The notes under the pieces were generated by a model. It did no database searches, was not told the origin of the DNA, and was given only the letters and a program-made list of their open reading frames with translations. 64,000 nt of DNA, taken from positions 9,170 through 73,169 of the IMG/VR virus record IMGVR_UViG_3300042465_004839. One strand, given 5' to 3'. Source of the DNA: a virus. Position 1 is the first letter of the stretch; every line of letters begins with the position of its first letter. Of this stretch, positions 5,405 through 41,356 are shown in pieces. Made by a program: the position numbers and the translations under genes.

Positions 5405-5408
5405 AATT

Positions 5409-9247: not shown

Positions 9248-9269
9248 AATTGTTTTTTGTGTTTTTAAA

Positions 9270-9455: not shown

Positions 9456-9461
9456 AATTGT

Positions 9462-14461: not shown

Positions 14462-14767
14462 TTATTTATTTGTTGTTAGGTATTGATGTAATAATCCTGC
14501 TATAGACTCCACTAATTGTTCATTCATCCAATCTGGGTTTCCACTATGGTAAAGTATGCAATGTGCAAGCTCATGGCAAAAAGTGGATTCAACTATGCTC
14601 TGCTTGTACTTTCTCCAGCCTTTCTCTGCCTTGTACTTGCTTGCTATTATGATTATGTTGTCATAAGATATAAATCTTCCGAAGCATTCGTTTTCAGCAC
14701 AGTACTTATTATCGTACTTTACTAGTATTGTTTGCCCAAGCATATTGAAGGAGGATGGTATAATCAT
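14462..14767 (-). CDS. small zincin-like metallopeptidase
   Basis: FCHELAHCIL (HExxH) plus downstream NEQLVE. Confidence 0.75.
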   Translation of the reverse strand: MIIPSSFNMLGQTILVKYDNKYCAENECFGRFISYDNIIIIASKYKAEKGWRKYKQSIVESTFCHELAHCILYHSGNPDWMNEQLVESIAGLLHQYLTTNK

Positions 14768-16279: not shown

Positions 16280-16420
16280 TTTGTTTTATTGAATGTAGTT
16301 ATTATATTTGCAGCGTACTAATTGGTATTATTGAAGTAGAGAGCAGTAATACCTATTAACTAGGATTAATTAAACAATTAATCAAGCCCTGAACAATTCT
16401 CTACTTGTTTGGGGCTTTTA
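16280..16420 (+). promoter_or_regulatory. Bacteroidota promoter plus structured leader/attenuator of the replication operon
   Basis: TTTG (16280) -19 nt- TATATTTG (16303); two hairpins then a terminator (16384-16420). Confidence 0.7.
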
Positions 16421-16426
16421 TTTTAT

Positions 16427-16888
16427 ATGAAAAACTTTGATAGTTTTAAAAACGCAATTTCGGTATACCTAAAGTTTAACGATAGATATTGCCTTCAATA
16501 TTTAGAGCCAATAGGTCATAAAAAAATTTCTATTATTTTATCTTTAATTAGAAAAGACAATGAAATTACACAGGAACAATATTATACAGTATGTTCAATG
16601 TATAGTCATTTCTATAGTAATTATTTTAAAATAAAAAATTTAAATAGTTTAGAACCAAGAAAAATTGCACAGCAGTTTATTAGTAGAAAAAAAATAAGAC
16701 ATTTTATTTTTAAAAGAGATGGTTTTAAGTGCTTAAAGTGTGGTTCTGAAAATAAATTACAGATTGACCATATATTACCAATAGCAAAAAAAGGAGAAAA
16801 TAAAATATCAAATTTACAAACACTTTGTATTTTTTGTAACAGTAAAAAAAGAGATAATTATAAAGACTATAGAAATGGCGGAAAATAA
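16427..16888 (+). CDS. HNH endonuclease
   Basis: RDGFKCLKCG...IDHILP...N..SNLQTLCIFCNSKK. Confidence 0.9.
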   Translation: MKNFDSFKNAISVYLKFNDRYCLQYLEPIGHKKISIILSLIRKDNEITQEQYYTVCSMYSHFYSNYFKIKNLNSLEPRKIAQQFISRKKIRHFIFKRDGFKCLKCGSENKLQIDHILPIAKKGENKISNLQTLCIFCNSKKRDNYKDYRNGGK

Positions 16889-18925: not shown

Positions 18926-19121
18926 AAACAAACAAAAACATGGAAAAAAAAGAATTATTATTAGAAATTGAGTGTAAGTATGGGTTCTATACCTGCGCAA
19001 ACAAAGTTGAATCATTTTGTGAAACTTGTAATGAAGGAGATAATTATGAAGACAATGGGGAATAAAATGAATTTTTTTGATGGTTTATTTTATTATGTGG
19101 ACAAATTTATTATATTTGCAT

Positions 19122-19577
19122 ATGGAAAAAATATTAGAACAATATGATAACAAATATTCAGTTACAACTGAAGGAAAAGTTTTTAGTTTAAAAGGAAACA
19201 AAAAAGAATTATTAGGGAAAATATGTAAATCAGGTTATAGACAAATTCTTATTAACCACAAAGGAATTAGAAAGTATTTTTTAGTTCATAGATTAATATT
19301 ATCATCTTTTGTTCTTAATCCTTTTAATAAAAGAACAGTTAATCATAAAGATGGAAATAAATTAAATAATAATGTATCTAATTTAGAATGGAATACAGAT
19401 TCTGAAAATCAAATTCACGCTATTGAAAAAAAACTTATTATACATAAAATTGATTACGAAATTGCTGAAAAAATAAGAAATGATGTAGGAAGTCATAGAG
19501 AATTAGCAATAAAATACAAATTAGGTAAAACACAAATTGGATATATTAAACAAAATAAAAGATGGAAAATAAAATAA
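19122..19577 (+). CDS. HNH homing endonuclease (NUMOD4/HNH_3-type)
   Basis: VHRLI...VNHKDGNKLNNNVSNLEW; ATG 3 nt after TATATTTG. Confidence 0.9.
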   Translation: MEKILEQYDNKYSVTTEGKVFSLKGNKKELLGKICKSGYRQILINHKGIRKYFLVHRLILSSFVLNPFNKRTVNHKDGNKLNNNVSNLEWNTDSENQIHAIEKKLIIHKIDYEIAEKIRNDVGSHRELAIKYKLGKTQIGYIKQNKRWKIK

Positions 19578-21310
19578 ATGTATTGTCTTTGTTCGATGGT
19601 TGTTCGTGCGGAAGACAAGCTCTTGAGAGAGCAGGAATAGAAGTAAATCAGTACTTTGCATCTGAAATTGATAAGTACGCTATTCAAGTTACAATGGCTA
19701 ACTATCCAGACACAATTCAGTTAGGTAGTGTAGTAAATGTTGATGGAAAGTCATTACCAAAGATAGAATTGCTACTTGGAGGATCCCCATGCACCAATTT
19801 TTCATTTGCAGGTAAACGTAAGGGTATGTCTACTAAAGATGAGCAAGAAATATTAACTTTAGAGCATTACTTACAGTTAAAAACTGAAGGATTTGAGTTT
19901 GAGGGTCAGTCTTACCTATTTTGGGAGTATATGAGGCTACTAAATGAGGTAAAACCTACATACTTTCTTCTTGAAAACGTAGAAATGGGTGAAAAATGGG
20001 AAAAAGTACTAAGTAAAGCCATTGGGTACAACGGAATTCATATAAATTCTGCATTAGTGTCAGCTCAGAACCGTAAAAGAATCTACTGGACAAATATTGG
20101 TATGCAACCTGCTGGATTATTTGGTGATTTAGAGTCTATTATTCAGCAACCTAAAGATAGGGGTATACTTTTAAAGGATATTTTACAAGATAATCCAAAT
20201 GCTAAGTACTATATTTCCTCAAAAATGGAGGAGCATTTAAACTCAAGAGATTCTGTTAAAATAAAAAATGGTGAAGATAAAAGTGGTACAATTACTACAA
20301 ATGGTGAGGGCAAACAAGGCAATAACTCTACATTTATTTGTCAAGAAGTTGATGAAAAGTATTTTTTAAGTGAAAGTCTAATAAGTAAGCTTCATGTATA
20401 CAACCAAAGACAGATTGATAACGGCAATGGGTTTATGGCTAAATTTAGAGATACAAATGTAGTTGAAAAGATGGACTGTATAAAAATTGGTGGTGGGATG
20501 AAGGATGACTTAATAGTTCACAACACAATGCCACGCTCATCAACTACAGGAAAGGGTGGTACTGGTCCGTTAAGTAGAAATGATGGTAAAACATACTGCT
20601 TAGACACAAAGAATACCAATGCATTAGAGATTGTATGTGGTCAGTTAGGCTACGATAAGCCATTTGAAGAAAACGATAAGGCTCAAGCACTACTACAAAG
20701 AGATTACAAGGGTATGAGTAACTACGGAATTAATGTAGTGGTAAATGCAAATGGGGCTAAAGAACAGGTAGTAGGTAGGAAAGCTCAAGAAGATGGAACT
20801 TACAAAAGAGAGTACGAGGTTTCAAATGATGAAAAGGCTAAAACATTGGAAACAAACAAACAAAAAAACAATGTTGTGATTAGAGAAATAAAACAAATAA
20901 GCCAAAACAACAAGTCAAATGGTGGCACTCAGCCTTACCAACAGGATAGAGTATACGATGTTGATGGCATAAGTCCTGCACTAACAAGTCAACTGCCTAA
21001 AGGAAGTTCTATGATTTATTTAAATGAAAATCAACAAAAAAAATTTAACCCAAACATAGATTCAGATAAAGCCAATACACTTACACTTGCTATAGGAAGA
21101 GCAGGTAGCAGTAGTGAGTATATGGACTCTGTTTCTAAAATAGCTAATATCACATCAAGAATTAGAAGACTTACCCCAGTAGAGTGTGAAAGATTACAGA
21201 CAGTTGCAGACAATTATACTGCACACGTTTCAGATTCTCAGAGGTACAAGATGCTTGGAAATGGTTGGACGATTTCAGTTATAGCCCACATATTTAGTTA
21301 CATAAAATAA
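19562..21310 (+). CDS. DNA (cytosine-5)-methyltransferase with expanded variable region
   Basis: SLFDG (I), GGSPC (IV), LENV (VI), QNRKRIY (VIII), RRLTPVECERLQ (IX), YKMLGNGW (X). Confidence 0.95.
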   Translation: MENKINVLSLFDGCSCGRQALERAGIEVNQYFASEIDKYAIQVTMANYPDTIQLGSVVNVDGKSLPKIELLLGGSPCTNFSFAGKRKGMSTKDEQEILTLEHYLQLKTEGFEFEGQSYLFWEYMRLLNEVKPTYFLLENVEMGEKWEKVLSKAIGYNGIHINSALVSAQNRKRIYWTNIGMQPAGLFGDLESIIQQPKDRGILLKDILQDNPNAKYYISSKMEEHLNSRDSVKIKNGEDKSGTITTNGEGKQGNNSTFICQEVDEKYFLSESLISKLHVYNQRQIDNGNGFMAKFRDTNVVEKMDCIKIGGGMKDDLIVHNTMPRSSTTGKGGTGPLSRNDGKTYCLDTKNTNALEIVCGQLGYDKPFEENDKAQALLQRDYKGMSNYGINVVVNANGAKEQVVGRKAQEDGTYKREYEVSNDEKAKTLETNKQKNNVVIREIKQISQNNKSNGGTQPYQQDRVYDVDGISPALTSQLPKGSSMIYLNENQQKKFNPNIDSDKANTLTLAIGRAGSSSEYMDSVSKIANITSRIRRLTPVECERLQTVADNYTAHVSDSQRYKMLGNGWTISVIAHIFSYIK

Positions 21311-22137: not shown

Positions 22138-22200
22138 AAAAATTTAATTAGTTACTGTCCAACCAATTTTTAACTTTGTGAAATCAAAACAAACATAATT

Positions 22201-22872
22201 ATGAATAAATACATCACATACTTCAGAGTAAGTACAAAAGAGCAAGGACAGAGTGGCTTAGGATTAGCTGCCCAAGAACAAATGGTTCTACCCATCACCA
22301 ACAACGGAATAGTAGTGGCATCATTTACAGAAGTAGAGTCAGGAAACAAGTCTAACCGTAAAGAGTTAGAAAAGGCTATCAATACCTGTAAACAACATAA
22401 CGCCATACTCCTCGTAGCAAAACTTGATAGACTATCTCGTAACGTACACTTCATTAGTACACTTATGGAAAGTAAAGTACAGTTCAAGTGTGCCGATGCC
22501 CCAGAGATGGACTCATTCACCGTACACATATTCTCAGCTCTCGCAGAAAGAGAACGTAAAATGATTTCCGACAGAACCAAAGGCGCACTACAAAGCATCA
22601 AAAGAATCATTGACAGAGATGGTGAGTACACCACTAAAGCAGGTAGAGTAATATCTACTCTCGGTAACGGTCTACTACAAAACAAAGAAACTGCCAAAAA
22701 ACAAATGGCGTACGTTGCATCCCACAGAGTATACCAAAAAAAGTCTAACATAGGTCTTGCCCTCGTACAGTCACTATCACAAAATGGTGTTCCCAAGAAA
22801 GATATTAAACAAAAACTTGCCGATAACGGTATTAACGTGTCACTACAAACAATATATAAATATGCAAAATAA
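22201..22872 (+). CDS. small serine recombinase (resolvase/invertase family)
   Basis: YFRVST catalytic Ser, EVESG, LLVAKLDRLSR, ER..ISDRTK, C-terminal HTH; own TAACTTTG promoter at 22171. Confidence 0.92.
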   Translation: MNKYITYFRVSTKEQGQSGLGLAAQEQMVLPITNNGIVVASFTEVESGNKSNRKELEKAINTCKQHNAILLVAKLDRLSRNVHFISTLMESKVQFKCADAPEMDSFTVHIFSALAERERKMISDRTKGALQSIKRIIDRDGEYTTKAGRVISTLGNGLLQNKETAKKQMAYVASHRVYQKKSNIGLALVQSLSQNGVPKKDIKQKLADNGINVSLQTIYKYAK

Positions 22873-27341: not shown

Positions 27342-30300
27342 ATGCCAGATAAAATAAAAGAAGCATTTACTGCTATAAACGACAAAGAATTATTTTTAGA
27401 CGAACAAGACTTTAGGGATAATGTAATGAAAGACCCAAAAGGAACATTTGAAGCATTAAATAATTATGGTAAAACTAAAGGATTTTTTTTAGATTATGGA
27501 GATTTTGAAAGTGCTTTAGATTTAAAAAAAAAAGAGCCTACAGCACCATCTATACCAAATTTTTCAACAAGTTTGGGAGGGGATATGCAACCTTTGCCAA
27601 GTGGTGCAAAAAATATTTCCCAATCACCATTACAATCGAATATAAAAACAGAGTTTCCGACATACATTGACCCTACAAAACCTTTAAAAACAAAAGAGGT
27701 TATAGATGTAAATGCGGAGAAGAAACCTTTTGATAGTGAAGTAATAAGAAAAGAAAGAGAGGTAAGATTAGGTACACATAGAGAAAAGATAATGTCTTCT
27801 ATTGTTAAAGAACCTGACTTATATACTAAAAAAGCATCTAAGTCACATTATGGAACTATAGCAGTACCAGAAATGCCTAACATTGATAACATATCAAAGG
27901 CAATAGATTACTATGCAACAAAATTAGTTAAACAAGGTGAATACCTTAGCCCACTTGATAAACAATATTTAGTAAATAGTGTTGCTCAACAAGTAAAACA
28001 AAGGAAAAATATTGCAGATGCAGCAGCAAATGCAAGTCTTAGAGCAATAAACAGAAAAGAATTACCTGAATACGCTTACACAGGCGTAACTAATGCTAAA
28101 GGAGAAGTGTTAGTAAAAGGACTTTTTCAAGAAGCAAACGAAAAAATAATCAACGAACAAAATAAGGAAGTTGACAATTACAAAATAAATTCTGAAAATT
28201 TAACAAAAACAGTAGCAACAGAAGTTGCCCCAGAAGTAAATGCTTTAAAACTTGATGTTAAAGCCAAAGCAGAAATATTAAATCAAGAGGTAGAAACTGC
28301 TTTTAATAAATCATTTAACGAAAAAGACAAAGCTATGTATGACCAATACAATCAATTGGTTCAAAGTGGGCAAATGACTCCTGATGTAGCAAATAATGCT
28401 TTAAAAATAAAAAGAGAAGAATTACAAAAGCAGACACAAGCAGAGATAAGTGCTGCCTATGCTCCTAAGTTTGATGCATTAAATAAAGAATCTAACTTAA
28501 AATCAAAAGACATACAAAGTACATATAACAGAAACTACTTAGCAAAAGCAAACTTACTAAAAGAAACTACTAACAAAAAACTTCAAGAAATAGCCCAAAA
28601 AAATATGGTAAATATGCCTAAAGGGTATATGGAAAGATGGGCAAAGGATTTTCAAGAAAGTTTAGCTGAAATAGAAAAGAAAAACGTAAATCAAGCTTAT
28701 TTAGATGCTAAAAGAATGCCAGCAGAGGCAAGATTAGCAAAAGCAGTTTCTTTTGGGTTTGGTAATGTATTAGGCTCAATAGGAGGGGCTATGTCATTTG
28801 CAGGATTAGATGCAAGTGCAGTAAACGATGTAGTTATTAAAACTACAATGCAAAATGAACTTACAAGTAGTGCGTATTACCGAATTAAAGATGAAGAAGC
28901 AAAAGCAAATGGAACTCCACACGCTAATTTTGTAGAGAAACTTTCTGATCCTTCTTGGTGGTATGATAATATGGGAAGTACCGCACCATTTATGTTAGTA
29001 ACTATGCCAGTAGGTATAGCATCAGGTTATGGGGCAGGCTCTATAGCAAAATTATTAGGAGCGAGTAAAAGAGCAACAGCTATTGCAAGTGCAGTAGGTG
29101 GTGGTGCAGTAAGTTGGTATGGAGAAAACACATTAGAGGCAGGAAGTGCATTTAACGATGCTATTAATCAAGGGTACTCAGAAAACGATGCATCAGAAAT
29201 AGCAGCAAGAACATTTAGAAATAACATAATAACATTACCTCTAAGTGTATTCCAGCTAATGCCAGTATTTAGTAAATCATTTAAATTTACTAAAGCATTA
29301 CCGTTAGAAATAATTTCTGGAGGTGTTGAAGAAGTGTTTCAAGGTTGGTCACAAGCTGAAGCAAATGCAGCAGCAAATGGGTATGATGTAAGTTTATTTG
29401 AGTATGCTAAAACCCCACAAGCATTAGAGGAGGGAACTATTGGAGGTGCGATGCAAGCAGGTATGGCAATGTTTGCATTAAATGAAACTCCAAATATTGA
29501 CAAACAAATATCTGCATTAATGAGTTCTATAAGTGTAGGTGGCGAACAGTATGCAAGAGCAGTATTGGATGTAATGAACAAGAATCAAGCCATTACAGAT
29601 GCTGAATTTAAAGAAGCTAACCTACAAATAGACTACATCTTAAATGGTATTGAAAGTGTTCAAAACTTTAATGTAGACGACAATTTAAAGGCAGGATTAG
29701 TAGGTAAATTTGCTAAAATAGGCAGAGCAAAGGCATTAATTACAGATGATGAGAATGACTTGGCAAGTCAAGCTGCAAAAGAAATGATTGCAGAGCAAGA
29801 GAAGGATATAAAAGAAATTTTAAAAGGTAATACACCTTTATATTTAGTATTCCAAAAAGGGAATCCAATACCAACTTTAGCAAGTGAAGAGCAGTTTAAC
29901 ACAATACTAAAAGACCCAAAACTAAGAGAGGAATTTACATTACAAGCAATAAATGATGATGCATTGCAAAGTAAAATAGATGAAACATATAAAACAGGAG
30001 TAGTAACAGAAGAAGAAACAATAAATGCAGAACAAGAAATTATACCAGCAACTGAAACCCCTGCTGCACCACCTAGCGGTGTTAGTGGTGAGGTACAGGC
30101 ATCTGGTGATGTAGAAGCAAATATAGCCAACAGAAAAAGAAAAGATTTATTCCCTGACAAATCAAGATTTGCTAATGACGTAGGTCAAAGTGGAGAAAAC
30201 TCTCAAATATCATCATACAAAGAAGTAAATGGAATTGGATTATCAGAATATTCTAATCCTAAAAATGGTTTAGTAGATGTTATAATGACAGGAACTTCTG

Positions 30301-33300
30301 ATAATGATTATGTTGGATACATAAGAATATACGAAAACGGCAAGCCAACAAATAGATGGACATCTAAAATGTCAAACAAATCTGGCAATAAAGGCAACTT
30401 TAAAACCATGATAACAGAAGCTCAAAAATTACTTCCAGAGGGTCACGAATATACTGAAACTACAAATATATCTTTAGATGGTTTAAGGGTTTATGCTAAC
30501 AGTTTAAGCAGAGATTATGAAATAGCTACTGATGAAGATGGAAAACCTATAACAAATAATGTTGAATTAAATAATGCAACATTAGCAGCACTACAAGGCG
30601 CAAAAAATCAACAAGAAACTGAAGATTTGTTTGACACTAAACGAGGAATTACAAGAGATGAATTTAATCAAATAAAAGAGCAAGTAAATAAATTATTGCC
30701 AAATACAAGATTATTATTTGACACGGCAAATGGAATTGTAACAATACAATTACCTGTACTAAAATCAACTAAAAAACAATTAACAACTAACGAACAACAA
30801 AAAGCATCTAAAAAAGTTGCTGAAGTAACTCCTAAAGAAGGCGACAGCGTTATTATAAAATCACGTTTTGGTCGTGATGAAAAGTTGGTATTTAATAAAG
30901 GAGAGTGGAGAGTACAATTTGGTAAAGATGAATTTAGTGATATTGGTAAGGCTGCTCAACAAGAAGCTCAAGATGCATTTAATAAAAAGAATGAACCTGT
31001 TGCTGAGGTTAAGGAACAAGCACCTGTAGTTAAGGAACAAGCTCCTAATAGGGCAGAAGGAAATGTTAAAGTAAAATCTTTTAAACAAGGAGATGGCGGA
31101 ACAAAAGGAGTTTTTGAAGGAGAAGATGGTAAACTTTATAAATCTATTGAGCCACAAGAATCAGTTCAAGACAAAGAAGGAAACTTTAAGCGTCAAACCA
31201 TTAAAGATACACTAACAGACGAGCATAAAATATTGTCTGAACTTCAAGATAACCCTCATGTACCTAAAGTAGGTAAAATTGTAGATACTACGGAAGGCAA
31301 AGCTTTTGAAATAGAAAAATTAGATGAAGTTGATACTTTTACTAAAGATGAGTATAGGGAAATTCAAAAAATACTAAATGACTTAAACGACAAAGGTTAT
31401 CATGTAGGAGATAGAGTTACTGTTATGAAACGCCCAAAAACAGGCGAACTTGTTATTATTGATTTTTCTGCTGGGTACAAAGGAAGTAGAATGTCAAGAG
31501 ATGCCGATGAATATATGGGTGACGTAGCAAAGAAACTAAGTAAATCTGATGCTATAAATATTAAATTAGAAGACTTGTCAGAAATAAATAGAGAACAAGC
31601 AGATGCTTTTTTTGACAAAGAATCAACTACTGAATACTACTTAACACAAAGACCTCCAAGCATAGGAACACACCCAACAGAAGGATTATTATCGGTTAAC
31701 GAAGCAGAATATAGAAACAGAAAAAATGTTTATATACTTAAATATGATAGAAAACTTACACCAAACGAAATAGCTAACTTTGAACTAACTCCTAAAGTAA
31801 CAAATAAAGAATTTTTAGGTCAAAAAATATTAGGTGTATATGGTAAAGTTCCATTTTATGTAACTAAAATAGATTACAAAAATGGAACTGTAAAAATGGC
31901 TGCGGAGGTAGTTGGAAAAGAAGTAGAAAAAGAAATTTCTTTTAGGGAGTTTAGTAAAAATATAGACGAAGGTAAATATAAAGTAGAAACACCCAAAGAA
32001 GAAAAACCTGTTAAGGAACAAAAAGAGCCTGTTAAGGAACAAACTGAAAAAGAAAAGGCTAAAGAAAAGGCTAAGGAAGAATTAAGAGCAAGAGCAGCAA
32101 AAGCTAAAGCTGAGGCTATTAGTGCTGCACAAAAAGTTCAACAAGCATTAGAGGCAACAGGAATAACTGTTGAAGTAGTTGATAGTGAGCAAGAGTTCCA
32201 AGATAAATTAGATGCTGAGGGTGTTAATAGAGCAAGTTCAGCAGGTAAAAGCGGTGTATTTATATCTAAGTCAGGTAAAATATTTATTAACGGTAGCAAG
32301 GTTGATGCTAACTGGGGTAGTGTAGATGTATGGCACGAAGGAACTCACCCTATTATTAACATAATAAGGAACACAAACCCTAAACTATACAATTCAATAA
32401 TAGATGGACTAAATAAATTAGTTACAAGTAATCCAGAGATTGCTGATGTTTTAAAGTGGGCGCAAAAAAATTATAAAGGCAAAAACACTTTAGAGGATGA
32501 AACTATAACTGAAACCATAGCAAGAATAGCAAATGGCAATATAGATATATCAAAGATACCTACATCATTAAGAGATAAGATAATAGATTTCATTAATGAG
32601 ATTGCTAAGTCATTAGGAATAAAACCTATGTTCAAAAGTTCTAATGTTGCAACATTTAAAAAGATAGCAGGCGAAATATCTGCTGCACTTAAAGAAGGTA
32701 AAGATATTAGTAGTATAGTAGGTGCAGAAAATGTTAAGAATTATGAGTCAAAAATAACAATAGAAGACTCAGAGTCTTATGTTAAAAAAGCAAATGAATC
32801 AGAAACATCAGAAGGTATTAATAATGAAAATATATCTATTAGCGATATAAGCGGTAACTCTAGAAAAGGCATTCAGTTTTCAAAAGGCAAGGAAAGAACC
32901 GAAGAGAAAGCTAAAGAAACAGTTGAAGATAAAATCAAGGCAGAAACAATAAAAGCAGTAAAAAAATCTATATTAGACTACAAAAGTTTAAAAGGTAAAA
33001 TATCAAGAACACTATTTTATGATAACACAAGGGTTGGTTCTTTAGAAATAAAAAACAGAATTACAGGATACACTCCACCTGTTATGGGTAAGGGTGGCTT
33101 CTTTTATTCTTATATGCCTAGTTCTTTAAAAAATAAAGCAGTATTAGCATTTACAAGTATTAACCAAGCCATACAAACCTTAAAGAGGCAAATGCTATAC
33201 CCTGATGGGTTACAGGCTATTGCTGCTCAAAATTTTCAAACTGCACATCTTGGGAATAAGTCTACCTTAGAAGCATTGTTTGGGAAAAGTGGTTCTGAAA

Positions 33301-36300
33301 ATTTAGGCATATTTCAAGACTCTGTAAAAGATGTAAAAAACAATCCGAATGGGGAAGCTGAGTTGCTAGAAACATTGAAAAAAGCAACAATAGATATTGC
33401 CAATCAAAAAGTGCAGTCAGGAGTTAATGAAGGCAAGCCAACGGCATCAGCAGAAGAGATAAAAAAAATAATAGAAAGAAATGGAGGAAATTTAGATGGT
33501 ATAAAATCACTTGATGATTATAGGGATAAAGTTTTGACATTTACAGGAGGTGACTCATTTGGAGCAAGAAATATATTATTTACTGAAGTACTTCAAGAAA
33601 AACCAACAAAAATAACTAAATCCACAAGGGAATCTCACCAAATAATACATTATAAGTATGGCATTCCTACCTTATCTGAAATAGCCGAAGGTAATAATCA
33701 AAGTGAACTAAATAATGCCGAAACAGGAGATGTTGTTAAATTTGTAAAGCCATACACAGACCCTGTTGTATACACTACTGACAAAAAAATATATAAACAA
33801 TACTCTGAAAATCCAACGCCTGAAATGGTTGAGAATGGCATTAAAATAAAGTTATTGCCTAAAGATGCTGCACACGAATCTTATGCTTTTGTTTTAAAAG
33901 GTGAAAACGTAGGTTTGTTAGACAACTACATTTCAGCCACTCAGTTATATGAAAAAAATGAAAAAATAGCCAACACCCCTAAAAAGCAAAGTTTTTATAA
34001 AGTGGGAAGGATGCCTGCAAATGCAGAGGCTGGAGTGTATCCAGAAAACCCCATTGCTCAGGGAAAGGCTCAATACTCACAAGGGAACAGAGATGCTGTT
34101 GCAAATAAGAATACAGAAAAAAATAATATTATAATAAAAGATAATAACATAGAGGGCAAACTTCTTAACAATCAAGAGTCACAAAAATTACAAAAAGAAA
34201 TTGAATCTAAATATAATGACTCAGGAATACAAAAATTTGGACAAGAAAATGAAGATATACGTCAGAATTTATATAACTATGATAACCCATTAGCAGAAAA
34301 AGATGTAAATGGGATTAATATAAGAATTGCAGAGGGATTATTAGAGGGAGATAAATATTCTGGAAACAGGAAAAAAACTTATTTGTTATATGCAGATGGT
34401 AAGATAGCAGGTAAATTCTATTCTGTAGCAGATGCAAAAAAAGTTGTAAGTTTTATTGAGCAAAACTTAATAAAACCAAAATCATTAGCACCAAGTAATC
34501 CTCAATACTCTCAAGGTAACAGAGATGCTGTTGCTAATGAAAACTTAATAAATGGATTCTATTCACCATTAGAGAAAACAATTAACGATTCTAAGCAAGA
34601 TAAGATGCCTGCTAAACAATGGATAGAAAAGTTTGCTAAAGGTGAAGAAGCTAAATGGACAGGACTAACTGATTGGTTAAGCTCTCAAACAGGCTCGGTA
34701 TCTAAAGCAGATATTCAGCAATACTTAAAGGACAATAGAATAGAAATTGAGGAAAAAGTTAAAGGAAGTTCTGATTGGATTAAAGAAGGTAAATCATATT
34801 TTTCACAAAATAAAAAATATGAAATAAGAGATTTAGGTGATAATGAATATACAGTAATTAAAGATGGCAGATATAATTTAGGTAGTCGTGATGGTCTTGA
34901 AAGGGCTAAAGAACTTGCATTTGAAGATGGATATTCAAATGAAGAAGATATAAATAATGACACTAACTTTGGCAACCGACCTGATTTACAATTAGAAGGA
35001 GAGAAAGAAAATTACAAAGAGATATTGGTGACGTTGCCAAATAAAGAAGCAATAAAAGAATCTGAAATTGAAGAAAAAAGACGAAAAGCTGGAATTATGG
35101 ATAATTTTAACTTTGAAACAATGGGTTATAATGATACTCGAAATGTTCCAAAGTTTGTATCATCTCACTTTGATGAACCCAACATACTCGTTCATTTAAG
35201 GATGAATACTCGTATAGATTCAAATGGTAATAAAGTATTGTTAATTGAAGAAGCACAAAGCGATTGGGGTCAAACAGGGAAAAAGAAAGGGTTTAAACCA
35301 ACTTTTGAAATTAGAAACGAAAAAGGTATGTTCAATGTTTATTCTTCTGTAAACAATATGAAAGAACCTGCATTTTCTTTTGATACAAAGGAAGATGCAA
35401 ATAAAATGCTTGAAACTTTAAATAAAACAAATGAAAGTAAAGTTCCAACTGCACCATTTGTAATGGACACAAATGCATGGGCTAAACTTGGTTTAAAGGT
35501 AGCATTAAAAGAAGCAGTTGCACAAGGAGTTGATAAGATTGCTTGGACTACTGGAGAGCAACAAAATGATAGGTATGATTTAAGCAAACAAGTTGATGAA
35601 ATCAATTACAGTAAAAATTCAGATGGAACTTATGATGTATCCGCCAACAAAAATGACAACCAAGTATTTGACAAGTCTTACATAAAAGAAAATGAATTAG
35701 AGGGAATAGTAGGCAAAGAAGTTGCTCAAAGAATAATAAACAATGAGGGTAAAGAACCGGTAAGGGGTAGTGGTAATTATAAAAAATCATTAAGTGGTGA
35801 TGGATTAAAAGTTGGCGGTAAAGGAATGAAAGGCTTTTACGGATCACCAACAGAAGGTAAATTAGGTATAGTAGGTGAGGTTGCTAAGAGTTTGTTTAAG
35901 CAAGAACCGAAAACGGTAAGTATAGAAGGAATATTAAGTTTTAATGTTTACGATAATAAAGATGGGAATTTGCAAGGTAATTTTGCCGACTTTAATTCTG
36001 CAAAAGAATTTGCAAAAAAAATAGATGGTAGTGTTCAAAAAACAAATATTTCAACTCAAAATTCAATAGACATAACACCAGAGTTAAAAGCACAAGTTGA
36101 AGAAGGTCTGCCTCAATTCTCGCAAGGGAGTAGAGATATACAATCTCTTGTAGATATAATTACAGAAACTCAAGAAAAAGGACAATTAGATGATAATGAA
36201 ATAGCAGAAACTTTAGAAGCTTCTTACTCTAAAGAAGAAATTCAAGAAGCATTTGATTATATCAATAACCCACCTATAAATGAGCCTACTGCAACAGAAA

Positions 36301-36581
36301 CTGTAGAACCATCTAAAGTTGAATCTGAAAAAGTAGTTAATTCATTAAACACAGCAGAAGTAGAGGCGGTAGCAAAAGCTTTAGCAAAGGAAGAAAAGAA
36401 AGGATTTGATAAAACCAATAATACCGAAAGGAATAATGCAAGGAATAAAGAAGCAGAAAAGGAATTAAAGGATTTGGAAAATGCTGCTACCGTACTTGCT
36501 ATAACTCAAAATATAAATGAGATTAGAGCAAAATTACTCGAAAATGGTAACATAAAAACTATTGACTGTAAATGGGGATAA
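27342..36581 (+). CDS. giant polyvalent cargo protein (membrane-type N-terminal region, GNAT-like, kinase-like, DarA_C-like, zincin peptidase, further modules)
   Basis: 3079 aa; Gly/Ala hydrophobic segments ~aa 470-720; kinase-like HVGD...IIDFS; RPPSIG...YDRKLT..EI..FEL; HEGTH; IEEAQSDW module. Confidence 0.8.
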   Translation: MPDKIKEAFTAINDKELFLDEQDFRDNVMKDPKGTFEALNNYGKTKGFFLDYGDFESALDLKKKEPTAPSIPNFSTSLGGDMQPLPSGAKNISQSPLQSNIKTEFPTYIDPTKPLKTKEVIDVNAEKKPFDSEVIRKEREVRLGTHREKIMSSIVKEPDLYTKKASKSHYGTIAVPEMPNIDNISKAIDYYATKLVKQGEYLSPLDKQYLVNSVAQQVKQRKNIADAAANASLRAINRKELPEYAYTGVTNAKGEVLVKGLFQEANEKIINEQNKEVDNYKINSENLTKTVATEVAPEVNALKLDVKAKAEILNQEVETAFNKSFNEKDKAMYDQYNQLVQSGQMTPDVANNALKIKREELQKQTQAEISAAYAPKFDALNKESNLKSKDIQSTYNRNYLAKANLLKETTNKKLQEIAQKNMVNMPKGYMERWAKDFQESLAEIEKKNVNQAYLDAKRMPAEARLAKAVSFGFGNVLGSIGGAMSFAGLDASAVNDVVIKTTMQNELTSSAYYRIKDEEAKANGTPHANFVEKLSDPSWWYDNMGSTAPFMLVTMPVGIASGYGAGSIAKLLGASKRATAIASAVGGGAVSWYGENTLEAGSAFNDAINQGYSENDASEIAARTFRNNIITLPLSVFQLMPVFSKSFKFTKALPLEIISGGVEEVFQGWSQAEANAAANGYDVSLFEYAKTPQALEEGTIGGAMQAGMAMFALNETPNIDKQISALMSSISVGGEQYARAVLDVMNKNQAITDAEFKEANLQIDYILNGIESVQNFNVDDNLKAGLVGKFAKIGRAKALITDDENDLASQAAKEMIAEQEKDIKEILKGNTPLYLVFQKGNPIPTLASEEQFNTILKDPKLREEFTLQAINDDALQSKIDETYKTGVVTEEETINAEQEIIPATETPAAPPSGVSGEVQASGDVEANIANRKRKDLFPDKSRFANDVGQSGENSQISSYKEVNGIGLSEYSNPKNGLVDVIMTGTSDNDYVGYIRIYENGKPTNRWTSKMSNKSGNKGNFKTMITEAQKLLPEGHEYTETTNISLDGLRVYANSLSRDYEIATDEDGKPITNNVELNNATLAALQGAKNQQETEDLFDTKRGITRDEFNQIKEQVNKLLPNTRLLFDTANGIVTIQLPVLKSTKKQLTTNEQQKASKKVAEVTPKEGDSVIIKSRFGRDEKLVFNKGEWRVQFGKDEFSDIGKAAQQEAQDAFNKKNEPVAEVKEQAPVVKEQAPNRAEGNVKVKSFKQGDGGTKGVFEGEDGKLYKSIEPQESVQDKEGNFKRQTIKDTLTDEHKILSELQDNPHVPKVGKIVDTTEGKAFEIEKLDEVDTFTKDEYREIQKILNDLNDKGYHVGDRVTVMKRPKTGELVIIDFSAGYKGSRMSRDADEYMGDVAKKLSKSDAINIKLEDLSEINREQADAFFDKESTTEYYLTQRPPSIGTHPTEGLLSVNEAEYRNRKNVYILKYDRKLTPNEIANFELTPKVTNKEFLGQKILGVYGKVPFYVTKIDYKNGTVKMAAEVVGKEVEKEISFREFSKNIDEGKYKVETPKEEKPVKEQKEPVKEQTEKEKAKEKAKEELRARAAKAKAEAISAAQKVQQALEATGITVEVVDSEQEFQDKLDAEGVNRASSAGKSGVFISKSGKIFINGSKVDANWGSVDVWHEGTHPIINIIRNTNPKLYNSIIDGLNKLVTSNPEIADVLKWAQKNYKGKNTLEDETITETIARIANGNIDISKIPTSLRDKIIDFINEIAKSLGIKPMFKSSNVATFKKIAGEISAALKEGKDISSIVGAENVKNYESKITIEDSESYVKKANESETSEGINNENISISDISGNSRKGIQFSKGKERTEEKAKETVEDKIKAETIKAVKKSILDYKSLKGKISRTLFYDNTRVGSLEIKNRITGYTPPVMGKGGFFYSYMPSSLKNKAVLAFTSINQAIQTLKRQMLYPDGLQAIAAQNFQTAHLGNKSTLEALFGKSGSENLGIFQDSVKDVKNNPNGEAELLETLKKATIDIANQKVQSGVNEGKPTASAEEIKKIIERNGGNLDGIKSLDDYRDKVLTFTGGDSFGARNILFTEVLQEKPTKITKSTRESHQIIHYKYGIPTLSEIAEGNNQSELNNAETGDVVKFVKPYTDPVVYTTDKKIYKQYSENPTPEMVENGIKIKLLPKDAAHESYAFVLKGENVGLLDNYISATQLYEKNEKIANTPKKQSFYKVGRMPANAEAGVYPENPIAQGKAQYSQGNRDAVANKNTEKNNIIIKDNNIEGKLLNNQESQKLQKEIESKYNDSGIQKFGQENEDIRQNLYNYDNPLAEKDVNGINIRIAEGLLEGDKYSGNRKKTYLLYADGKIAGKFYSVADAKKVVSFIEQNLIKPKSLAPSNPQYSQGNRDAVANENLINGFYSPLEKTINDSKQDKMPAKQWIEKFAKGEEAKWTGLTDWLSSQTGSVSKADIQQYLKDNRIEIEEKVKGSSDWIKEGKSYFSQNKKYEIRDLGDNEYTVIKDGRYNLGSRDGLERAKELAFEDGYSNEEDINNDTNFGNRPDLQLEGEKENYKEILVTLPNKEAIKESEIEEKRRKAGIMDNFNFETMGYNDTRNVPKFVSSHFDEPNILVHLRMNTRIDSNGNKVLLIEEAQSDWGQTGKKKGFKPTFEIRNEKGMFNVYSSVNNMKEPAFSFDTKEDANKMLETLNKTNESKVPTAPFVMDTNAWAKLGLKVALKEAVAQGVDKIAWTTGEQQNDRYDLSKQVDEINYSKNSDGTYDVSANKNDNQVFDKSYIKENELEGIVGKEVAQRIINNEGKEPVRGSGNYKKSLSGDGLKVGGKGMKGFYGSPTEGKLGIVGEVAKSLFKQEPKTVSIEGILSFNVYDNKDGNLQGNFADFNSAKEFAKKIDGSVQKTNISTQNSIDITPELKAQVEEGLPQFSQGSRDIQSLVDIITETQEKGQLDDNEIAETLEASYSKEEIQEAFDYINNPPINEPTATETVEPSKVESEKVVNSLNTAEVEAVAKALAKEEKKGFDKTNNTERNNARNKEAEKELKDLENAATVLAITQNINEIRAKLLENGNIKTIDCKWG

Positions 36582-36627: not shown

Positions 36628-37116
36628 ATGAAATACGAAATACCAAAGAAGGCAATGGCAATTGTAGATAGTTTAGCAAAATTAGAGTTAGGGCAAACCT
36701 CTTTCTATAAAAGACTTGCTCAACAAGCTAACAAAACAGGCTTTCTGTTAGCAGAAAAATACTTTGTAGCAGAAAGTATAGAAGAGAATGAACACTTTTT
36801 AGGATGGCAAAACTATGTTAATGGTAGAGGAAATGACTTTTCCATACCAAGTATTGAAGAGTATGATATAGAGGCTAAAGACTTAACTGAACTAATAAAC
36901 CTAAGTTTAGAGAAAGAGATAGATGTTAGTATGGCTTACAACGAAGCGTACAGCGAACTGTTATCATTAGATGTACCAACTGCTATAAAAGTAACAAAAT
37001 ACATTAAAATTCAAACATTAGCAGTAGCAATATACAAAGACTACGCAGCAACATTTAGTGGATTAGACAAAAGTGGACAGTTAGTAGCTGAACACACTAT
37101 TTTTGAGGAAAACTAA
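36628..37116 (+). CDS. ferritin-like protein
   Basis: E..Y in helix A, ESIEENEH (ExxEExxH), EKE, IQ; 162 aa. Confidence 0.8.
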   Translation: MKYEIPKKAMAIVDSLAKLELGQTSFYKRLAQQANKTGFLLAEKYFVAESIEENEHFLGWQNYVNGRGNDFSIPSIEEYDIEAKDLTELINLSLEKEIDVSMAYNEAYSELLSLDVPTAIKVTKYIKIQTLAVAIYKDYAATFSGLDKSGQLVAEHTIFEEN

Positions 37117-37234: not shown

Positions 37235-40200
37235 ATGGCTTGTAATATAAATTATACCCCTATTGGGAAGACAGAACCTATAAAACTTACTGAAGCAGAG
37301 TTTATTGTATACCTTGCAACGCCAGATGAGAATGGAGAAACAGAGTATCAACGACTACTTGATGCAGGAATAGATTTACCTAAAATAACCCAACCAAAAG
37401 CAACTAAAAAAGAAGCTGAACCTGTTCAAGAAGGCGAGAAGAGAGAAAAGTCTGTACTAAATAAATTTATGAATAGTACAGCAGGATCTAAGTTTAAGAA
37501 AGACATAGAAACTTTAGGTTTAGAGTATGTAATAAAAGACCAAGCAGCAGCAAACGAGTACGCCCAGTACCTTTATAATAACTTAGGTTTTGCAGAAGCA
37601 TTAAGAGAGGCTACTTACAATGATGTTAAAACATTAGTATTTGGGGCAGCAATAGATGACTTATCAAAGAAAATAGAAACAGCAACAGGAAAAGAGTTAG
37701 CAGACTTAGAGGCAGAACGCAAGAAGGTAGTAAATGAGTTTGATGAGTTTGCAAGAGATTTAGGTAGAGGAGTAGCAGCAATAGGCTACTGGTATCTAAA
37801 CAATGCATCGGCAATTGAGTTTATGCTAAAAAGACAGATAGAGAATCAAGCTAAAGAAATACTATCACCAAAAGGACAAAAAGCAAACGAAACATTACAA
37901 CACAAGTTAGACCAAGTAAGTAAAGAGTTAGCAGATTTAAAAGCAAGTGCAAGTAGTGAGGCAGCAGCAAGGGCAGCAGCAAAAGCAGAGAAAGAGGCAG
38001 GTATAAGTATAGAGAAAGAGTTAGCTAAAAAGGATGGTATTGGTAAAAATGCTACTGAGGCTAAGAAAAAGCAAGTAAGAGATTTTATGAGTAAGTTTTT
38101 GGTTGATGAATCAAAACCTTTAAGTAATAAAACCTTTTCAACAATACTTCCTGTCAATGTTATAATTGACCCTAAAAAGTATAATAAGTTTATAGAGTTT
38201 CTTACAAAGCGACTTGAGGATGGAGTTGATATTCAAATGGCAATATCACAAGCATCAACAGATATGTTACTCTTTGCAAAAAGTAAGGAAATAAAAGATA
38301 TTGTAAATCTTTTTAATAAAAAAAGAAAAGAGTCAACTAACGAAAAACCTAAATCAGAACTACAGGAACAAAGAGAAGCTGCTAAAAAAGCATTTTACGA
38401 TATAGCTAATATGGGCAAGAAAGCTATGCGTGGAGAGATGACTCCTAAAGAATACAAACAATTTATAGAGGAGTTACTACTATCATCTGATGAGATACAG
38501 GCAAAAAGCAAGCAAGACTTTATAGATAAACTAACAGCAAAATTAAAGGAGTACGGAATAGAAAATGCAAGTGAGTATGTAAAAATATTTGTTGCTGAAA
38601 GAGAGGCTATTATTAATCAGAAAGCACAACAAATATTAGACAGAACTTTTAAGGGAATAAAAGATAAGTTAAGTGGAACATTTTTCCCAAGCAGAAAGAA
38701 AATAGAAACTCAAAGAATAATGGAGGCTATTATGTATGGCGCATTACAAAATGAGGACTATGCTAAATTATTCTACGAAAAGTACGGTATAGTAGATGCA
38801 AACGACCCACAAGTAGCAGAAAAATTAAAGGAACTTACAGAAATGTATAAAAATGCTACTACACCATTCTACAAAGAAATGGTATTAGCAAGGGCTGCTG
38901 GATACATTGGGTACATAAAAGCTAAAAATAAAACTTTAGGAGCTTGGTTAAACTATTTCTACAATAATATTTTACTTCATTACGATACTATTTTCAAAAT
39001 GATAAAGTTTAACGTAACTGCAAAGTTAGGAGGTACAGCGATGTTAATGGCAAAGAATCCTTACAATGCTATGTATTTTGCAAAAAAGATGTTTACAAGG
39101 AGTGGACTAAACTTTAGTAGGTCTTTGGCAATGGCAGAAGCAGCTTTTAGAGATAAGGTAAACATGAAGTTTGACTTAAAGGATAACGATGCAATATTAA
39201 ACTTAAAAGACTATATAGGTAATAAGTTTAAAAGATTTGTTCAATCTTTTAATAGAATGGCATCAAGAAGTTTAGGAGGCGGTGATGCTTTGTTTAGTTC
39301 AGTTGCAGCAGAAGCAAAATTAACTGAACTGTTATTTAACGAGTTTAGTAAAGAATTAAAGGCTAAAGGTATAAAGTTAAGCAAAAAAGAAACACAGGCT
39401 CTTATAAACGATATAATGGGTCACGATGCAGTAATTATAGATGCTATAAACGAGCAGTCAATAAAAGATGCATTAGCATATTATAATAAGAATAGTTATG
39501 AGGAATTAACTGCTGATGAAAAGCATGATGTAAAATTAAATACATTGTACACCTTGAATAAAAGAATGATTACAAGGGGTGCTGAGTTAGCAACAGAATT
39601 TGATTTAGCAAATATTAATGCACAAAGCATAATGATGGATAAGGAAAGAGCTGACAAGTGGGCTAAGACATCAGTAATGTACGGTAGACCAGAAGGAACA
39701 GTTGGACTTATTGCCGATGTAATAGGAACAGTAGGGGAAGGATTACAATGGTCAAAACCATTCTTTGCAACTATTATAAATGCACCATTGAATATGCTAA
39801 ACTTATATATTAACGGATCACCTTTAGGTATTGCAAGGTTAGCACTTAACTTATCAAGAAGTAAGAGAGGATTATTCTTGAGTGATGCATACATTAAAAA
39901 GCATGGGTTAGAGGCAGGAGTAAACATTACACCTGACCAAAAGAAGGAAATGATTATAAGAGTTGCTGCTGCACAGTTGTTAACAATTGGTATTTGTGCT
40001 TTACAGGGAGCTTTTGATGATGATGATGATTTAGAAGAAGAATGGAAAAAAGGTACATGGAGAGATAGAAAATTATATATAACAGCCGACTTGACAGGTG
40101 ACTACAAAAAGAATGAAACATTAAAGAAGACAGCAGGCGGTGCAGGATTAGAGGAGTACTCTGTGTATGCATATGGTCGAAAGGTTTGGGATTATAAAGA

Positions 40201-41356
40201 TGATTTTAGTGGAATATTCTTTTTACAGTCAGGTATTTATATGGATGCAAGAAGAAGTGGCAGAATAAATAAAGATAGAACTTGGGCTGATAAGTTACTT
40301 GCAGCACAAATGTTAGAAATAGAAGCACTAAAGGATATATCTTCATTAAAATCTGTAGCAGAAACTATAGATGTAGTTTTAGGTGGTGGAAAGTATAAAG
40401 GGGAAGAGTTAAATATTACACAAAGAATGAAAGACCATTGGGAAACATCAATGGCTAAAACTATAACAGCAGGAGGATTCCCAGCAGGTAGGATGTGGCA
40501 ATCAGCAATTGAAGACTACAGAGGTTTAACATCTCAAGATAAAAAAGAACCTTACGGAGTTTTAGATAAATTAAAAGGAATGGTAGCCTTACAAGAAGAT
40601 TTAAGAACTAAAACAGACTTCTTTGGTAGACCAATAAAAGAAAGATTTAAAGTAGCATCACCTTTAGCAACTAACTTTGTAAGGCAAACTCCTACAAACG
40701 AATGGTTGATATTATGGCAAAAGGCAAAACTGTCAGACCCTTTATTTACGTTATTGGCTGAACATGATTTTAATGAAATAAAACATAAGCTTAGAACAAA
40801 TCAAGCTATGACAGACTTAGGTAAGTACGGAATAGGTAAGATAGACCTTACACAAAGACAGATAGATGAGATAAATGAGGCAAGGGGTAAAGCACTTTTA
40901 ACATTCCTATCAGACCCAACTAATTTTGAGGCAATGGATATGCTTGACGACAAAGAATTTGCAACAGTAGCAACACTTGTACTAAATACTGCAAATAGAA
41001 ATGCATTCCAAAAAGTAGTAGAAGGCAAAACAACAAACACGCTATCAACAGGATACATAGAGGCACAAGAGCAGGCGGACTTGAAAGAAATTGATGCTAA
41101 AATGAAGAAGGCTAAGGAAGAAGTTATTGCTGAAGAAAAACGTATACAAAGAAATCGTATCACTCAAGAAGAGTTAGACTTTAGTAAAAAAGTAGGAAAG
41201 GGTGACTGGGATAGAAGAAAAGATTATTTCATACTTGACTTACAAAACAGCAATTCTCCAGAAAGCCAAATAAGAAGGTGGACAAAAGGATTTGGCGGTA
41301 CAGATGATATTACAGTAACCGAAGCAGAAGATTTAAGAAAACAATTAAAAAAATAA
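37235..41356 (+). CDS. large internal virion / cargo protein
   Basis: 1373 aa, helical; hydrophobic segment followed by DDDDD; KTDFFGRPI near C-terminus; begins MAC. Confidence 0.7.
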   Translation: MACNINYTPIGKTEPIKLTEAEFIVYLATPDENGETEYQRLLDAGIDLPKITQPKATKKEAEPVQEGEKREKSVLNKFMNSTAGSKFKKDIETLGLEYVIKDQAAANEYAQYLYNNLGFAEALREATYNDVKTLVFGAAIDDLSKKIETATGKELADLEAERKKVVNEFDEFARDLGRGVAAIGYWYLNNASAIEFMLKRQIENQAKEILSPKGQKANETLQHKLDQVSKELADLKASASSEAAARAAAKAEKEAGISIEKELAKKDGIGKNATEAKKKQVRDFMSKFLVDESKPLSNKTFSTILPVNVIIDPKKYNKFIEFLTKRLEDGVDIQMAISQASTDMLLFAKSKEIKDIVNLFNKKRKESTNEKPKSELQEQREAAKKAFYDIANMGKKAMRGEMTPKEYKQFIEELLLSSDEIQAKSKQDFIDKLTAKLKEYGIENASEYVKIFVAEREAIINQKAQQILDRTFKGIKDKLSGTFFPSRKKIETQRIMEAIMYGALQNEDYAKLFYEKYGIVDANDPQVAEKLKELTEMYKNATTPFYKEMVLARAAGYIGYIKAKNKTLGAWLNYFYNNILLHYDTIFKMIKFNVTAKLGGTAMLMAKNPYNAMYFAKKMFTRSGLNFSRSLAMAEAAFRDKVNMKFDLKDNDAILNLKDYIGNKFKRFVQSFNRMASRSLGGGDALFSSVAAEAKLTELLFNEFSKELKAKGIKLSKKETQALINDIMGHDAVIIDAINEQSIKDALAYYNKNSYEELTADEKHDVKLNTLYTLNKRMITRGAELATEFDLANINAQSIMMDKERADKWAKTSVMYGRPEGTVGLIADVIGTVGEGLQWSKPFFATIINAPLNMLNLYINGSPLGIARLALNLSRSKRGLFLSDAYIKKHGLEAGVNITPDQKKEMIIRVAAAQLLTIGICALQGAFDDDDDLEEEWKKGTWRDRKLYITADLTGDYKKNETLKKTAGGAGLEEYSVYAYGRKVWDYKDDFSGIFFLQSGIYMDARRSGRINKDRTWADKLLAAQMLEIEALKDISSLKSVAETIDVVLGGGKYKGEELNITQRMKDHWETSMAKTITAGGFPAGRMWQSAIEDYRGLTSQDKKEPYGVLDKLKGMVALQEDLRTKTDFFGRPIKERFKVASPLATNFVRQTPTNEWLILWQKAKLSDPLFTLLAEHDFNEIKHKLRTNQAMTDLGKYGIGKIDLTQRQIDEINEARGKALLTFLSDPTNFEAMDMLDDKEFATVATLVLNTANRNAFQKVVEGKTTNTLSTGYIEAQEQADLKEIDAKMKKAKEEVIAEEKRIQRNRITQEELDFSKKVGKGDWDRRKDYFILDLQNSNSPESQIRRWTKGFGGTDDITVTEAEDLRKQLKK

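Follow-up and report, generated by a model that had tools for sequence, protein, structure and literature searches.

Short junction peptides border the exchangeable modules of a giant phage polyvalent protein and are candidate cleavage sites of its embedded zincin-like peptidase

The stretch of DNA analyzed here, henceforth referred to as the window, comprises 64,000 bp (positions 9,170 to 73,169) of a single 73,169-bp viral contig, IMG/VR record IMGVR_UViG_3300042465_004839, which encodes a portal protein and a large terminase. The gene under study, P0001, encodes a protein of 3079 amino acids (aa) in which an HExxH metallopeptidase motif is followed by four copies of the short peptide Q[FY]SxG. 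The features of the gene are given below with window coordinates and strand. Structural limits refer to AlphaFold2 (AF2) models built from two family alignments, A1 (37 rows) and A3 (34 rows), with mean predicted local distance difference test (pLDDT) values of 70.4 and 69.7, respectively.

27342..36581, plus strand: giant polyvalent protein gene (P0001), 3079 aa, from the list of open reading frames (ORFs) and its translation
31632..31793, plus strand: DarA_C domain, aa 1431-1484 (Pfam PF18789, E 7.2e-09, 36.4 bits versus a cutoff of 27)
32154..32720, plus strand: zincin-like metallopeptidase domain, ~aa 1605-1793 (AF2 model residues 50-238, pLDDT 55-82)
32334..32348, plus strand: HEGTH, the HExxH metal-binding/catalytic motif, aa 1665-1669
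32499..32501, plus strand: Glu1720, candidate third zinc ligand by inferred role (column E165 of alignment A1)
32721..32909, plus strand: linker 1, aa 1794-1856, acidic, pLDDT <50 (model residues 239-301), holding an S-S-x-G-x-D island and motif 1
32874..32888, plus strand: motif 1, QFSKG (in QFSKGKER), aa 1845-1849, conserved as G-R-G-P-Q-F-S-K
32910..34076, plus strand: module 2, aa 1857-2245, well folded (pLDDT mostly >90), with many invariant residues
34071..34106, plus strand: motif 2, QYSQGNRDAVAN, aa 2244-2255, first arm of a 36-nt direct repeat
34263..34469, plus strand: module 3 core, aa 2308-2376, a small alpha/beta domain (model residues 753-821, pLDDT ~68)
34503..34538, plus strand: motif 3, QYSQGNRDAVAN, aa 2388-2399, second arm of the 36-nt direct repeat
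34539..36122, plus strand: module 4, aa 2400-2927, a very widespread domain whose fold starts at about model residue 21
36114..36137, plus strand: motif 4, QFSQGSRD, aa 2925-2932
36138..36578, plus strand: C-terminal helical module, aa 2933-3079 (helices at model residues 554-688)

DarA_C was the sole domain recognized by Pfam in P0001, and a PHROGs search with the giant protein returned no family. Relatives of P0001 carry PF18760 (ART-PolyVal), PF18857, PF18838, PF18762/3 and others in variable combinations, and ParB-like, methylase and helicase domains are also found among them. A preliminary description of this DNA, made from its letters alone, had proposed a polyvalent, cargo-type protein; a very large multidomain product, here a 3079-aa ORF in a phage contig, agrees with that term, and this identity is supported by the DarA_C match and by the ART-PolyVal and other polyvalent-protein domains of the relatives. 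The gene product is a virion-delivered polyvalent protein of an uncultured ~73 kb phage. A Kyte-Doolittle scan of the giant protein found no strongly hydrophobic segment (mean >1.4 over 19 residues). The ORF at 58092-62684 encodes a crAss-type muzzle protein (Pfam PF25731, E 4.4e-19); membership of the Crassvirales is not claimed on this one hallmark.

All coordinates given in the preliminary description for HEGTH and the four Q[FY]SxG copies were found to be correct, and all of them lie in one ORF. Successive copies are 399, 144 and 537 aa apart. The 4 copies seen compare with 0.04 expected from the protein composition, and a six-frame scan of the whole 73,169-bp genome detected Q[FY]SxG four times in real ORFs, each time in the giant protein; the fifth match in the genome lies on the minus strand with a stop codon in its context. 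A chance origin of the motif was ruled out by composition, by this genome-wide scan and by the shuffles described below. Internal protein repeats were also ruled out, as self-BLAST gave no high-scoring segment pair (HSP) between the blocks, in agreement with the earlier claim that the blocks between the linkers are unrelated. Over their 12 aa the two middle copies do not differ at all, and the 3 differences among their 36 nt are all synonymous.

The motif was then followed through relatives. A search with aa 1600-3079 returned 345 large relatives at E<=1e-3, of which the best 120 were taken; these contained 46 copies of Q[FYW]SxG in 31 proteins against 5.5 expected. A full-library search with a 1200-aa query (aa 1840-3039) returned 9567 clusters at E<=1e-3, and most of the matches listed from it fall on module 4. 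Motif counts were made on a set of 243 proteins, P0001 included, which held 89 copies of PQF[SQ][KR] versus a mean of 0.6 (maximum 3) in 20 shuffles, and 155 copies of the looser P[QLMKA][FYW][SQ][KRQ] versus 11.4 in shuffles. Over 80 non-redundant contexts the consensus was G(-4) x P Q F S K G, with F (67), Y (10) or W (3) at the aromatic position and S (59) or Q (21) at the next. Ahead of module 4 the motif is extended by N-R-D-A-V-A-N. The site is kept in relatives regardless of the flanking units, and the alignments show it to be a family-wide junction element rather than a peculiarity of the P0001 gene. A literature search on the strings QFSKG, QFSxG, QYSQG and QFSQG, judged by title and the start of the abstract, returned no phage paper.

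In an unbiased scan, the 150 most over-represented 4-mers in the 83 proteins sharing the peptidase type were ranked by the mixing of their flanking contexts; QFSK (13) and PQFS (11) ranked at the top, followed by YQLP (5) and PQFQ (4), with the other listed rows at 1 or below. YQLP was rejected as a second junction motif, being a conserved island inside module 4 between variable inserts. A context-diversity filter for junction motifs was also applied to the 160 proteins without the peptidase type, proved non-discriminating and was discarded.

Modules are gained, lost and exchanged at the motif. P0001 was compared by BLAST with the other 242 proteins; of the 367 HSPs obtained, 167 start at aa 2390-2409, just past motif 3. 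HSP ends are piled up in the same manner, with 158 at aa 2920-2939 on motif 4 and 38 at aa 2230-2259 on motif 2; another 20 end at aa 1800-1809, which is the end of the peptidase domain, ~40 residues ahead of motif 1. In ~100 relatives module 4 ends I-D-I-T-P-E-L-K-A-x-V-E-x-G-x-P-x-F and diverges completely straight after the F. In a census of 165 junction copies, 35 clusters of upstream sequence were joined to 51 clusters of downstream sequence, giving 80 combinations; 19 of the downstream clusters occur after module 4 and 12 after module 2, and 10 of the upstream clusters occur ahead of module 4.

Between aa 1557 and the G of motif 3 (aa 2392), P0001 shares 87% identity with the relative P0002; past that residue the two proteins are unrelated. 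At the DNA level, a sister phage of the P0002 kind (L003, a 64.5-kb metagenome contig) is 90.5% identical over window nt 32121-34523; the similarity stops inside motif 3, at the codons for P-Q-[YF]-S, after which a different tail module follows. In P0010, module 3 is absent and module 2 is joined to module 4 via one linker, QFSKGNRENIAAN. P0081 has the same C-terminal helical module after a different upstream module, joined at QFSKG. P0142 carries a Pfam ART-PolyVal domain at residues 583-718 with IQFQK 7 residues later, and in six proteins one and the same ART-type C-terminal sequence leads into IQFQK, beyond which all six continue differently. The preliminary description had proposed that modules are exchanged at the linker, and the HSP pile-ups, the P0002/L003 breakpoint, the lack of module 3 in P0010 and the 80 combinations bear this out. 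The comparisons show the motif to be an in-frame recombination joint at which cassettes are inserted, deleted and swapped exactly.

The whole module-3 unit of P0001, 432 nt at 34071-34502, is bounded by the repeated linker, and the 36-nt direct repeat around it reads as left by a cassette insertion at the linker. The motif-3 DNA of the window is identical at 36 of 36 positions to the motif-2 DNA of L003, so the two middle copies represent a recent duplication with ordinary synonymous drift. The earlier proposal that their synonymous differences indicate selection on the peptide is thereby weakened, since copies of a recent duplication under ordinary purifying selection would look the same. A joint of this kind could be the entire function of the motif, which would then be a flexible in-frame linker and domain cap in a chain that stays uncut. 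The exact breakpoints between 90%-identical phages, the direct repeat with its identical DNA copy in the sister phage and the 80 cassette combinations all favor this explanation, the principal alternative to cleavage, which we consider unlikely on the evidence given next.

The first junction, between the peptidase and module 2, is a fixed pair in 28 of 28 motif-bearing proteins. When 46 collinear sequences were aligned locally (P0001 plus 45 relatives, mostly 37-60% identical to it), linker 1 proved variable and gapped except for two islands. The island G-R-G-P-Q-F-S-K, which contains motif 1, retains Q in 37, F in 33, S in 38 and K in 37 of the 46 sequences. Because QFSK is kept at a junction that is never exchanged, and within a variable linker, the peptide itself appears to be under selection; as judged from this alignment, its conservation is better evidence of peptide selection than the synonymous differences. 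The same retention (QFSK at 33-38 of 46 beside the 28/28 pair) speaks against a motif that serves as a joint only. The peptide is moreover kept among relatives of mostly 37-60% identity (21% in one case), a divergence at which DNA homology over 15 nt cannot survive, and a plain spacer needs no invariant aromatic residue with a preceding Q and a following S/Q-K.

The second island, S-S-x-G-x-D (window 32808-32822, aa 1823-1827), is better conserved than the QFSK ~20 residues downstream, with S in 36, G in 44 and D in 40 of the 46 sequences. It could fold back on the active site. In the same 46 sequences the end of module 2 retains P in 42, Q in 30 and F in 38, and divergence follows.

The predicted structures place the linkers in inter-domain gaps, as the preliminary description had anticipated. 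Motifs 1 and 3 lie wholly in segments with pLDDT <50, motif 3 in both AF2 models, while motifs 2 and 4 straddle the end of a module. At motif 2, confidence collapses at model residue 691, straight after Q-Y, and ~60 low-confidence residues follow (aa 2246-2307). At motif 4, P-Q-F are the last ordered residues of module 4, where G and F are nearly invariant; after the motif come ~5 low-confidence residues (model residues 549-553, pLDDT <50) and then the helical module. The Gln and the aromatic residue of motifs 2 and 4 therefore sit on the last folded residues, with the remainder of each motif in a low-confidence stretch, and in the models these two residues can cap the preceding domain. That position on the end of a folded module is a further point in favor of a joint without cleavage. 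The standalone module-4 protein P0139 (596 aa) starts M-N-S-R-E-N-I-E-V just ahead of the domain, past the place of Q-F-S-x-G, and lacks the motif, which speaks against a pure joint. When short module-4 proteins were checked for natural termini, the anchor patterns caught 7 only; P0139 and P0246 begin 9 and 17 residues ahead of the domain.

A conserved linear motif in disordered segments could also be a short docking peptide for a partner, such as the capsid interior, the portal, a chaperone or a host factor, by which each cassette would be held or handed over separately. The motif is found strictly at cassette borders and not anywhere in the linkers, it is missing from standalone module proteins, and no partner was indicated by any analysis; we regard docking as very improbable.

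Module 2 resembled YTH and ASCH/PUA-like domains in structural comparison with VIA-align (Z 5.9-6.3 over 126-142 aligned residues, a middling score), and its invariant residues include His, Asp, Arg and Tyr. On the basis of the model, module 2 may read modified bases in nucleic acid. A search of the ESM Atlas with module 2 returned nothing. Module 4 has the invariant columns H, R, D, K, E-E, E and R, which suggests an enzyme. It matched no Pfam family and no solved structure, and in the ESM Atlas it matched unnamed clusters alone (best score 0.88). Searches of the PDB with phmmer using the peptidase, module 2 and module 4 returned nothing, Foldseek gave no PDB match at E<=0.001 for either AF2 model, and no Pfam model matched the peptidase clade or modules 2 and 4.

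The structural matches of module 3 are weak and include chain 7eni_C of an anti-Cas protein complex (Z 5.5) and, at Z 5.0, the AcrIF protein 7dtr_A. This model-based similarity is a lead for an anti-defence role, the matches being too weak to name the domain.

A protein related through module 4 occurs in a cultured system. Dolichospermum phage Dfl-JY45 (L001) encodes, at 3748-10911, a 2387-aa hypothetical protein with two module-4 copies (27-28% identity) and with neither HExxH nor the motif. This cyanophage may be the nearest cultured system for the study of module 4.

The peptidase domain was examined as the candidate processing enzyme. Across 37 aligned sequences H1665, E1666 and H1669 do not vary, and all three can be seen in each of the 46 rows of the wider alignment. 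Glu1720, 51 residues past the second His in a helical segment, is also invariant, and the zincin motif noted in the preliminary description is thus upheld by an HExxH and a downstream Glu that are both invariant in the 37 aligned relatives. With VIA-align the domain matched the N-terminal domain of Certhrax (Z 7.6, root-mean-square deviation (rmsd) 4.5, 167 residues aligned; a middling match), the N-terminal domain of anthrax lethal factor (LF; Z 7.0/6.9), the LF catalytic domain (1yqy_A, Z 5.5, rmsd 3.8, 146 aligned) and the metal-dependent hydrolase 3dl1 (Z 5.3). The best Foldseek match was also LF, at E 0.5. A link to lethal factor has been reported for polyvalent-protein peptidases in the available text of PMC5512222, and the fold matches obtained here agree with it. 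The domain is filed in no curated family and is described here as zincin-like by its motif, its conserved Glu and a weak fold match. A complex prediction of the peptidase domain with Zn and a 41-residue piece containing motif 2 gave a score of 0.00 and a mark of 0.32, which speaks neither for nor against binding.

Further HExxH sequences were observed. Within the wider family, 49 of 183 ends of module 4 are followed, 31-39 residues past the final F, by the start of another, compact HExxH domain, indicating that module 4 habitually adjoins a zincin of some clade. In the window, a 101-aa ORF at 14462-14767 (minus strand) contains the only other open-frame HExxH of the genome, in the context C-H-E-L-A-H-C. 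On sequence grounds, this ORF might encode a small metallopeptidase such as those that adjoin phage repressors.

All contigs in which the peptidase-module 2 unit was detected are metagenomic, viral and ~40-73 kb long. A single-protein search of viral contigs detected no close relative, and a profile search of IMG/VR contigs with the unit detected 36 loci.

In raw counts, the motif and the peptidase are strongly associated. [PVIA]Q[FYW][SQ][KR] was present in 61 of the 83 proteins with the peptidase type (mean 1.42 copies) versus 8 of the 160 without it (0.07), and in 1 of 110 short module-4 proteins that lack the peptidase. Of the 33 module-4 ends in the PQF[SQ] class, 29 belong to proteins with the peptidase, compared with 11 of 107 for the P[LM]F class. 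Module 3 has 8 homologs in varied contexts, followed by the motif in 2/2 with the peptidase type and 0/6 without; the two with the peptidase are close relatives and therefore count as one event. In the 36 IMG/VR loci, 32 motifs per 99,829 aa were counted in the giant ORFs versus 2 per 140,882 aa in other ORFs.

The same counts bear on whether another protease, either a phage head-maturation protease or a host enzyme, might cut at the motif while the embedded zincin is otherwise employed, for example against host proteins. Head-internal proteins of other phages are trimmed by prohead proteases at short consensus sites, and half of the more distant zincin relatives lack the motif, as would suit such an arrangement. 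A head protease would usually be expected to trim other head proteins too; here the motif occurs in no other ORF of the phage and reaches a 23x higher density in giant ORFs than in the remaining open frames of the IMG/VR loci (flanks <=10 kb per side). PHROGs or Pfam searches on 30 window ORFs (the rest were not searched) identified a portal and a terminase and no protease, and the only other open-frame HExxH is that of the 101-aa ORF. Cleavage by another protease is consequently judged improbable.

The C-terminal half of P0001 is a string of independent cassettes (the zincin-like peptidase, module 2, module 3, module 4 and the helical tail) joined by a short linear motif of consensus G-x-P-Q-[FY]-[SQ]-K-G. 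In the interpretation that we prefer, the embedded zincin would recognize and cut this motif, in cis or in trans and either in the head or after ejection, with the invariant aromatic residue filling the main specificity pocket of the protease. Cleavage would release a large N-terminal piece containing the peptidase (aa 1-1845) and four free products of ~45, 16, 60 and 17 kDa. That the motif is the cleavage site of the embedded zincin is a proposal to which we give even chances. The wider generalization is offered more tentatively, as somewhat less likely than not: the giants might be true polyproteins with a cassette grammar, each effector cassette being bounded by the cognate G-x-P-Q-F-S-K-G site of one zincin clade in the same chain.

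Several observations weigh against cleavage by the embedded peptidase. The first group concerns the site. P-x-F belongs to module 4, with a nearly invariant F. This holds also for relatives that run on into P-L-F-K-D without the remaining motif residues, so that a portion of motif 4 is a feature of the fold. The linker that follows motif 4 is also just ~5 residues long. The second group concerns the enzyme, whose zincin fold matches are coherent but middling (Z 5.5-7.6) and fall below the level at which the tool is reliable. No Pfam peptidase family was matched by P0001 (E<=0.1) or by five relatives (E<=0.05). None of 50,697 phage records, cultured phages among them, contains the peptidase-module 2 unit (module 4 alone matched two records), and searches of plasmids and of 185,579 species genomes did not detect it either.

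The third group concerns the association. A FastTree phylogeny of 178 module-4 segments requires 14 or more changes of motif state. It provides just 10 independent contrasts, in which the motif and peptidase changed in the same direction in 4.6, in the opposite direction in 1.3 and with no difference in 4.2 (sign test p ~0.375). Shared ancestry confounds the counts, and the motif-peptidase link is accordingly not significant once relatedness is controlled, a result that also favors the motif as a mere joint. The motif is lacking in 22 of the 83 proteins with the peptidase type and in 18 of the 36 IMG/VR giant ORFs. Many of these 18 share the peptidase alone, at ~38% identity, and some others have variants such as PEFSR or PTFSR. 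Finally, the virion RNA polymerase of phage N4 carries such a peptidase domain yet is packaged unprocessed according to the available text of PMC5512222, a precedent that likewise suits a chain that stays uncut; the available text of a 2026 N4 paper (PMC13434306) mentions the HExxH subdomain and does not mention processing. Overall, the preliminary description is partly supported, its observation being confirmed and its interpretation in part.

Parallels to embedded-protease cleavage at a repeated junction are found in several known systems. In MARTX toxins an internal cysteine protease domain cuts between effector domains, in linkers, after delivery. P0001 is alike in being one giant chain with an embedded protease and exchangeable effector cassettes. 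It differs in that its protease is zincin-like and not a cysteine protease, in being a phage protein that acts on bacteria, and in that cutting of its chain is a proposal. Polymorphic toxins have short junction sequences, such as VENN in CdiA and the DPxGL region of Rhs, the latter also being an autoproteolysis site. There, as here, a short conserved peptide forms the border between constant and exchangeable cassettes and a point of recombination. In P0001, however, there are several joints per protein with exchange on both sides, the sequence is another one, and the protein is phage cargo rather than a secreted toxin. The comparison covers the junction logic alone, as no toxin domain was recognized here and immunity genes were not searched for. 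Viral polyprotein and prohead proteases are chymotrypsin-like or herpesvirus/HK97-type serine proteases. Their substrates also carry a repeated short motif at product borders, whereas the candidate here is a metallopeptidase inside its own substrate in a dsDNA phage.

A close comparison is offered by the polyvalent proteins of phages and conjugative elements treated by Iyer et al. (2017; PMC5512222), who propose autoprocessing, with autoproteolytic release of domains by the proteins' own zincin domains. P0001 resembles the proteins treated in the available text of that paper as a giant multidomain phage protein with DarA_C, an HExxH peptidase and variable domains in its relatives, and differs from them by the defined motif at its joints. 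The available text describes neither a cleavage-site motif nor a junction motif, and the word "linker" does not occur in the main text. The cargo proteins of crassviruses (PhiCrAss001 gp45-gp50; PMC10172136) are likewise large virion-stored proteins, in a phage with a crAss-type muzzle, as far as the available text describes them. In the main text of that paper, the strings proteoly-, cleav- and protease do not occur.

Self-cutting of polyvalent proteins by zincins has thus been proposed since 2017 with neither a site nor an experiment, and a conserved junction peptide that may be tied to one peptidase clade makes the proposal directly testable. The motif also sets the exact borders of several very abundant uncharacterized domains, which are thereby expressible alone, and the breakpoints reveal a route of diversification, namely the in-frame transfer of complete cassettes at a single joint. 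Should cleavage be confirmed, the pair of peptidase and site might find use as a compact processing module. If the full polyprotein reading is true, a single short peptide would be both the release signal for separate effectors and the in-frame joint for effector trading, and a MARTX-like logic of multi-effector delivery would exist in dsDNA phages with a defined, portable cleavage module.

The remaining observations concern the surroundings of the giant gene. Directly 3' of it lies a gene for a ferritin-like 162-aa protein (36628-37116, plus strand; E 2.6e-05, barely at the Pfam cutoff). Beyond this, a 1373-aa protein (37235-41356, plus strand) had no Pfam or PHROGs match. Three separate HNH endonuclease genes are located at 16409-16888 (plus strand), 19077-19577 (plus strand) and 50330-50824 (minus strand). 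A gene for a C5 cytosine methylase of 582 aa (19562-21310) lies directly downstream of one HNH gene; Pfam matches this methylase in two separate stretches. A serine recombinase/invertase gene lies at 22201-22872 (plus strand; Resolvase N-terminal domain, E 1.4e-23), and no sign of phage integration was found in the 185,579 species genomes searched. It is overlapped almost fully by a 208-aa antisense ORF (22170-22796, minus strand). A tRNA-Ser with anticodon CGA is encoded at 13029-13101 (minus strand). Additionally, the G+C content of window positions 6001-10000 is 21-23% versus ~32-34% elsewhere, and this segment contains several small minus-strand ORFs.

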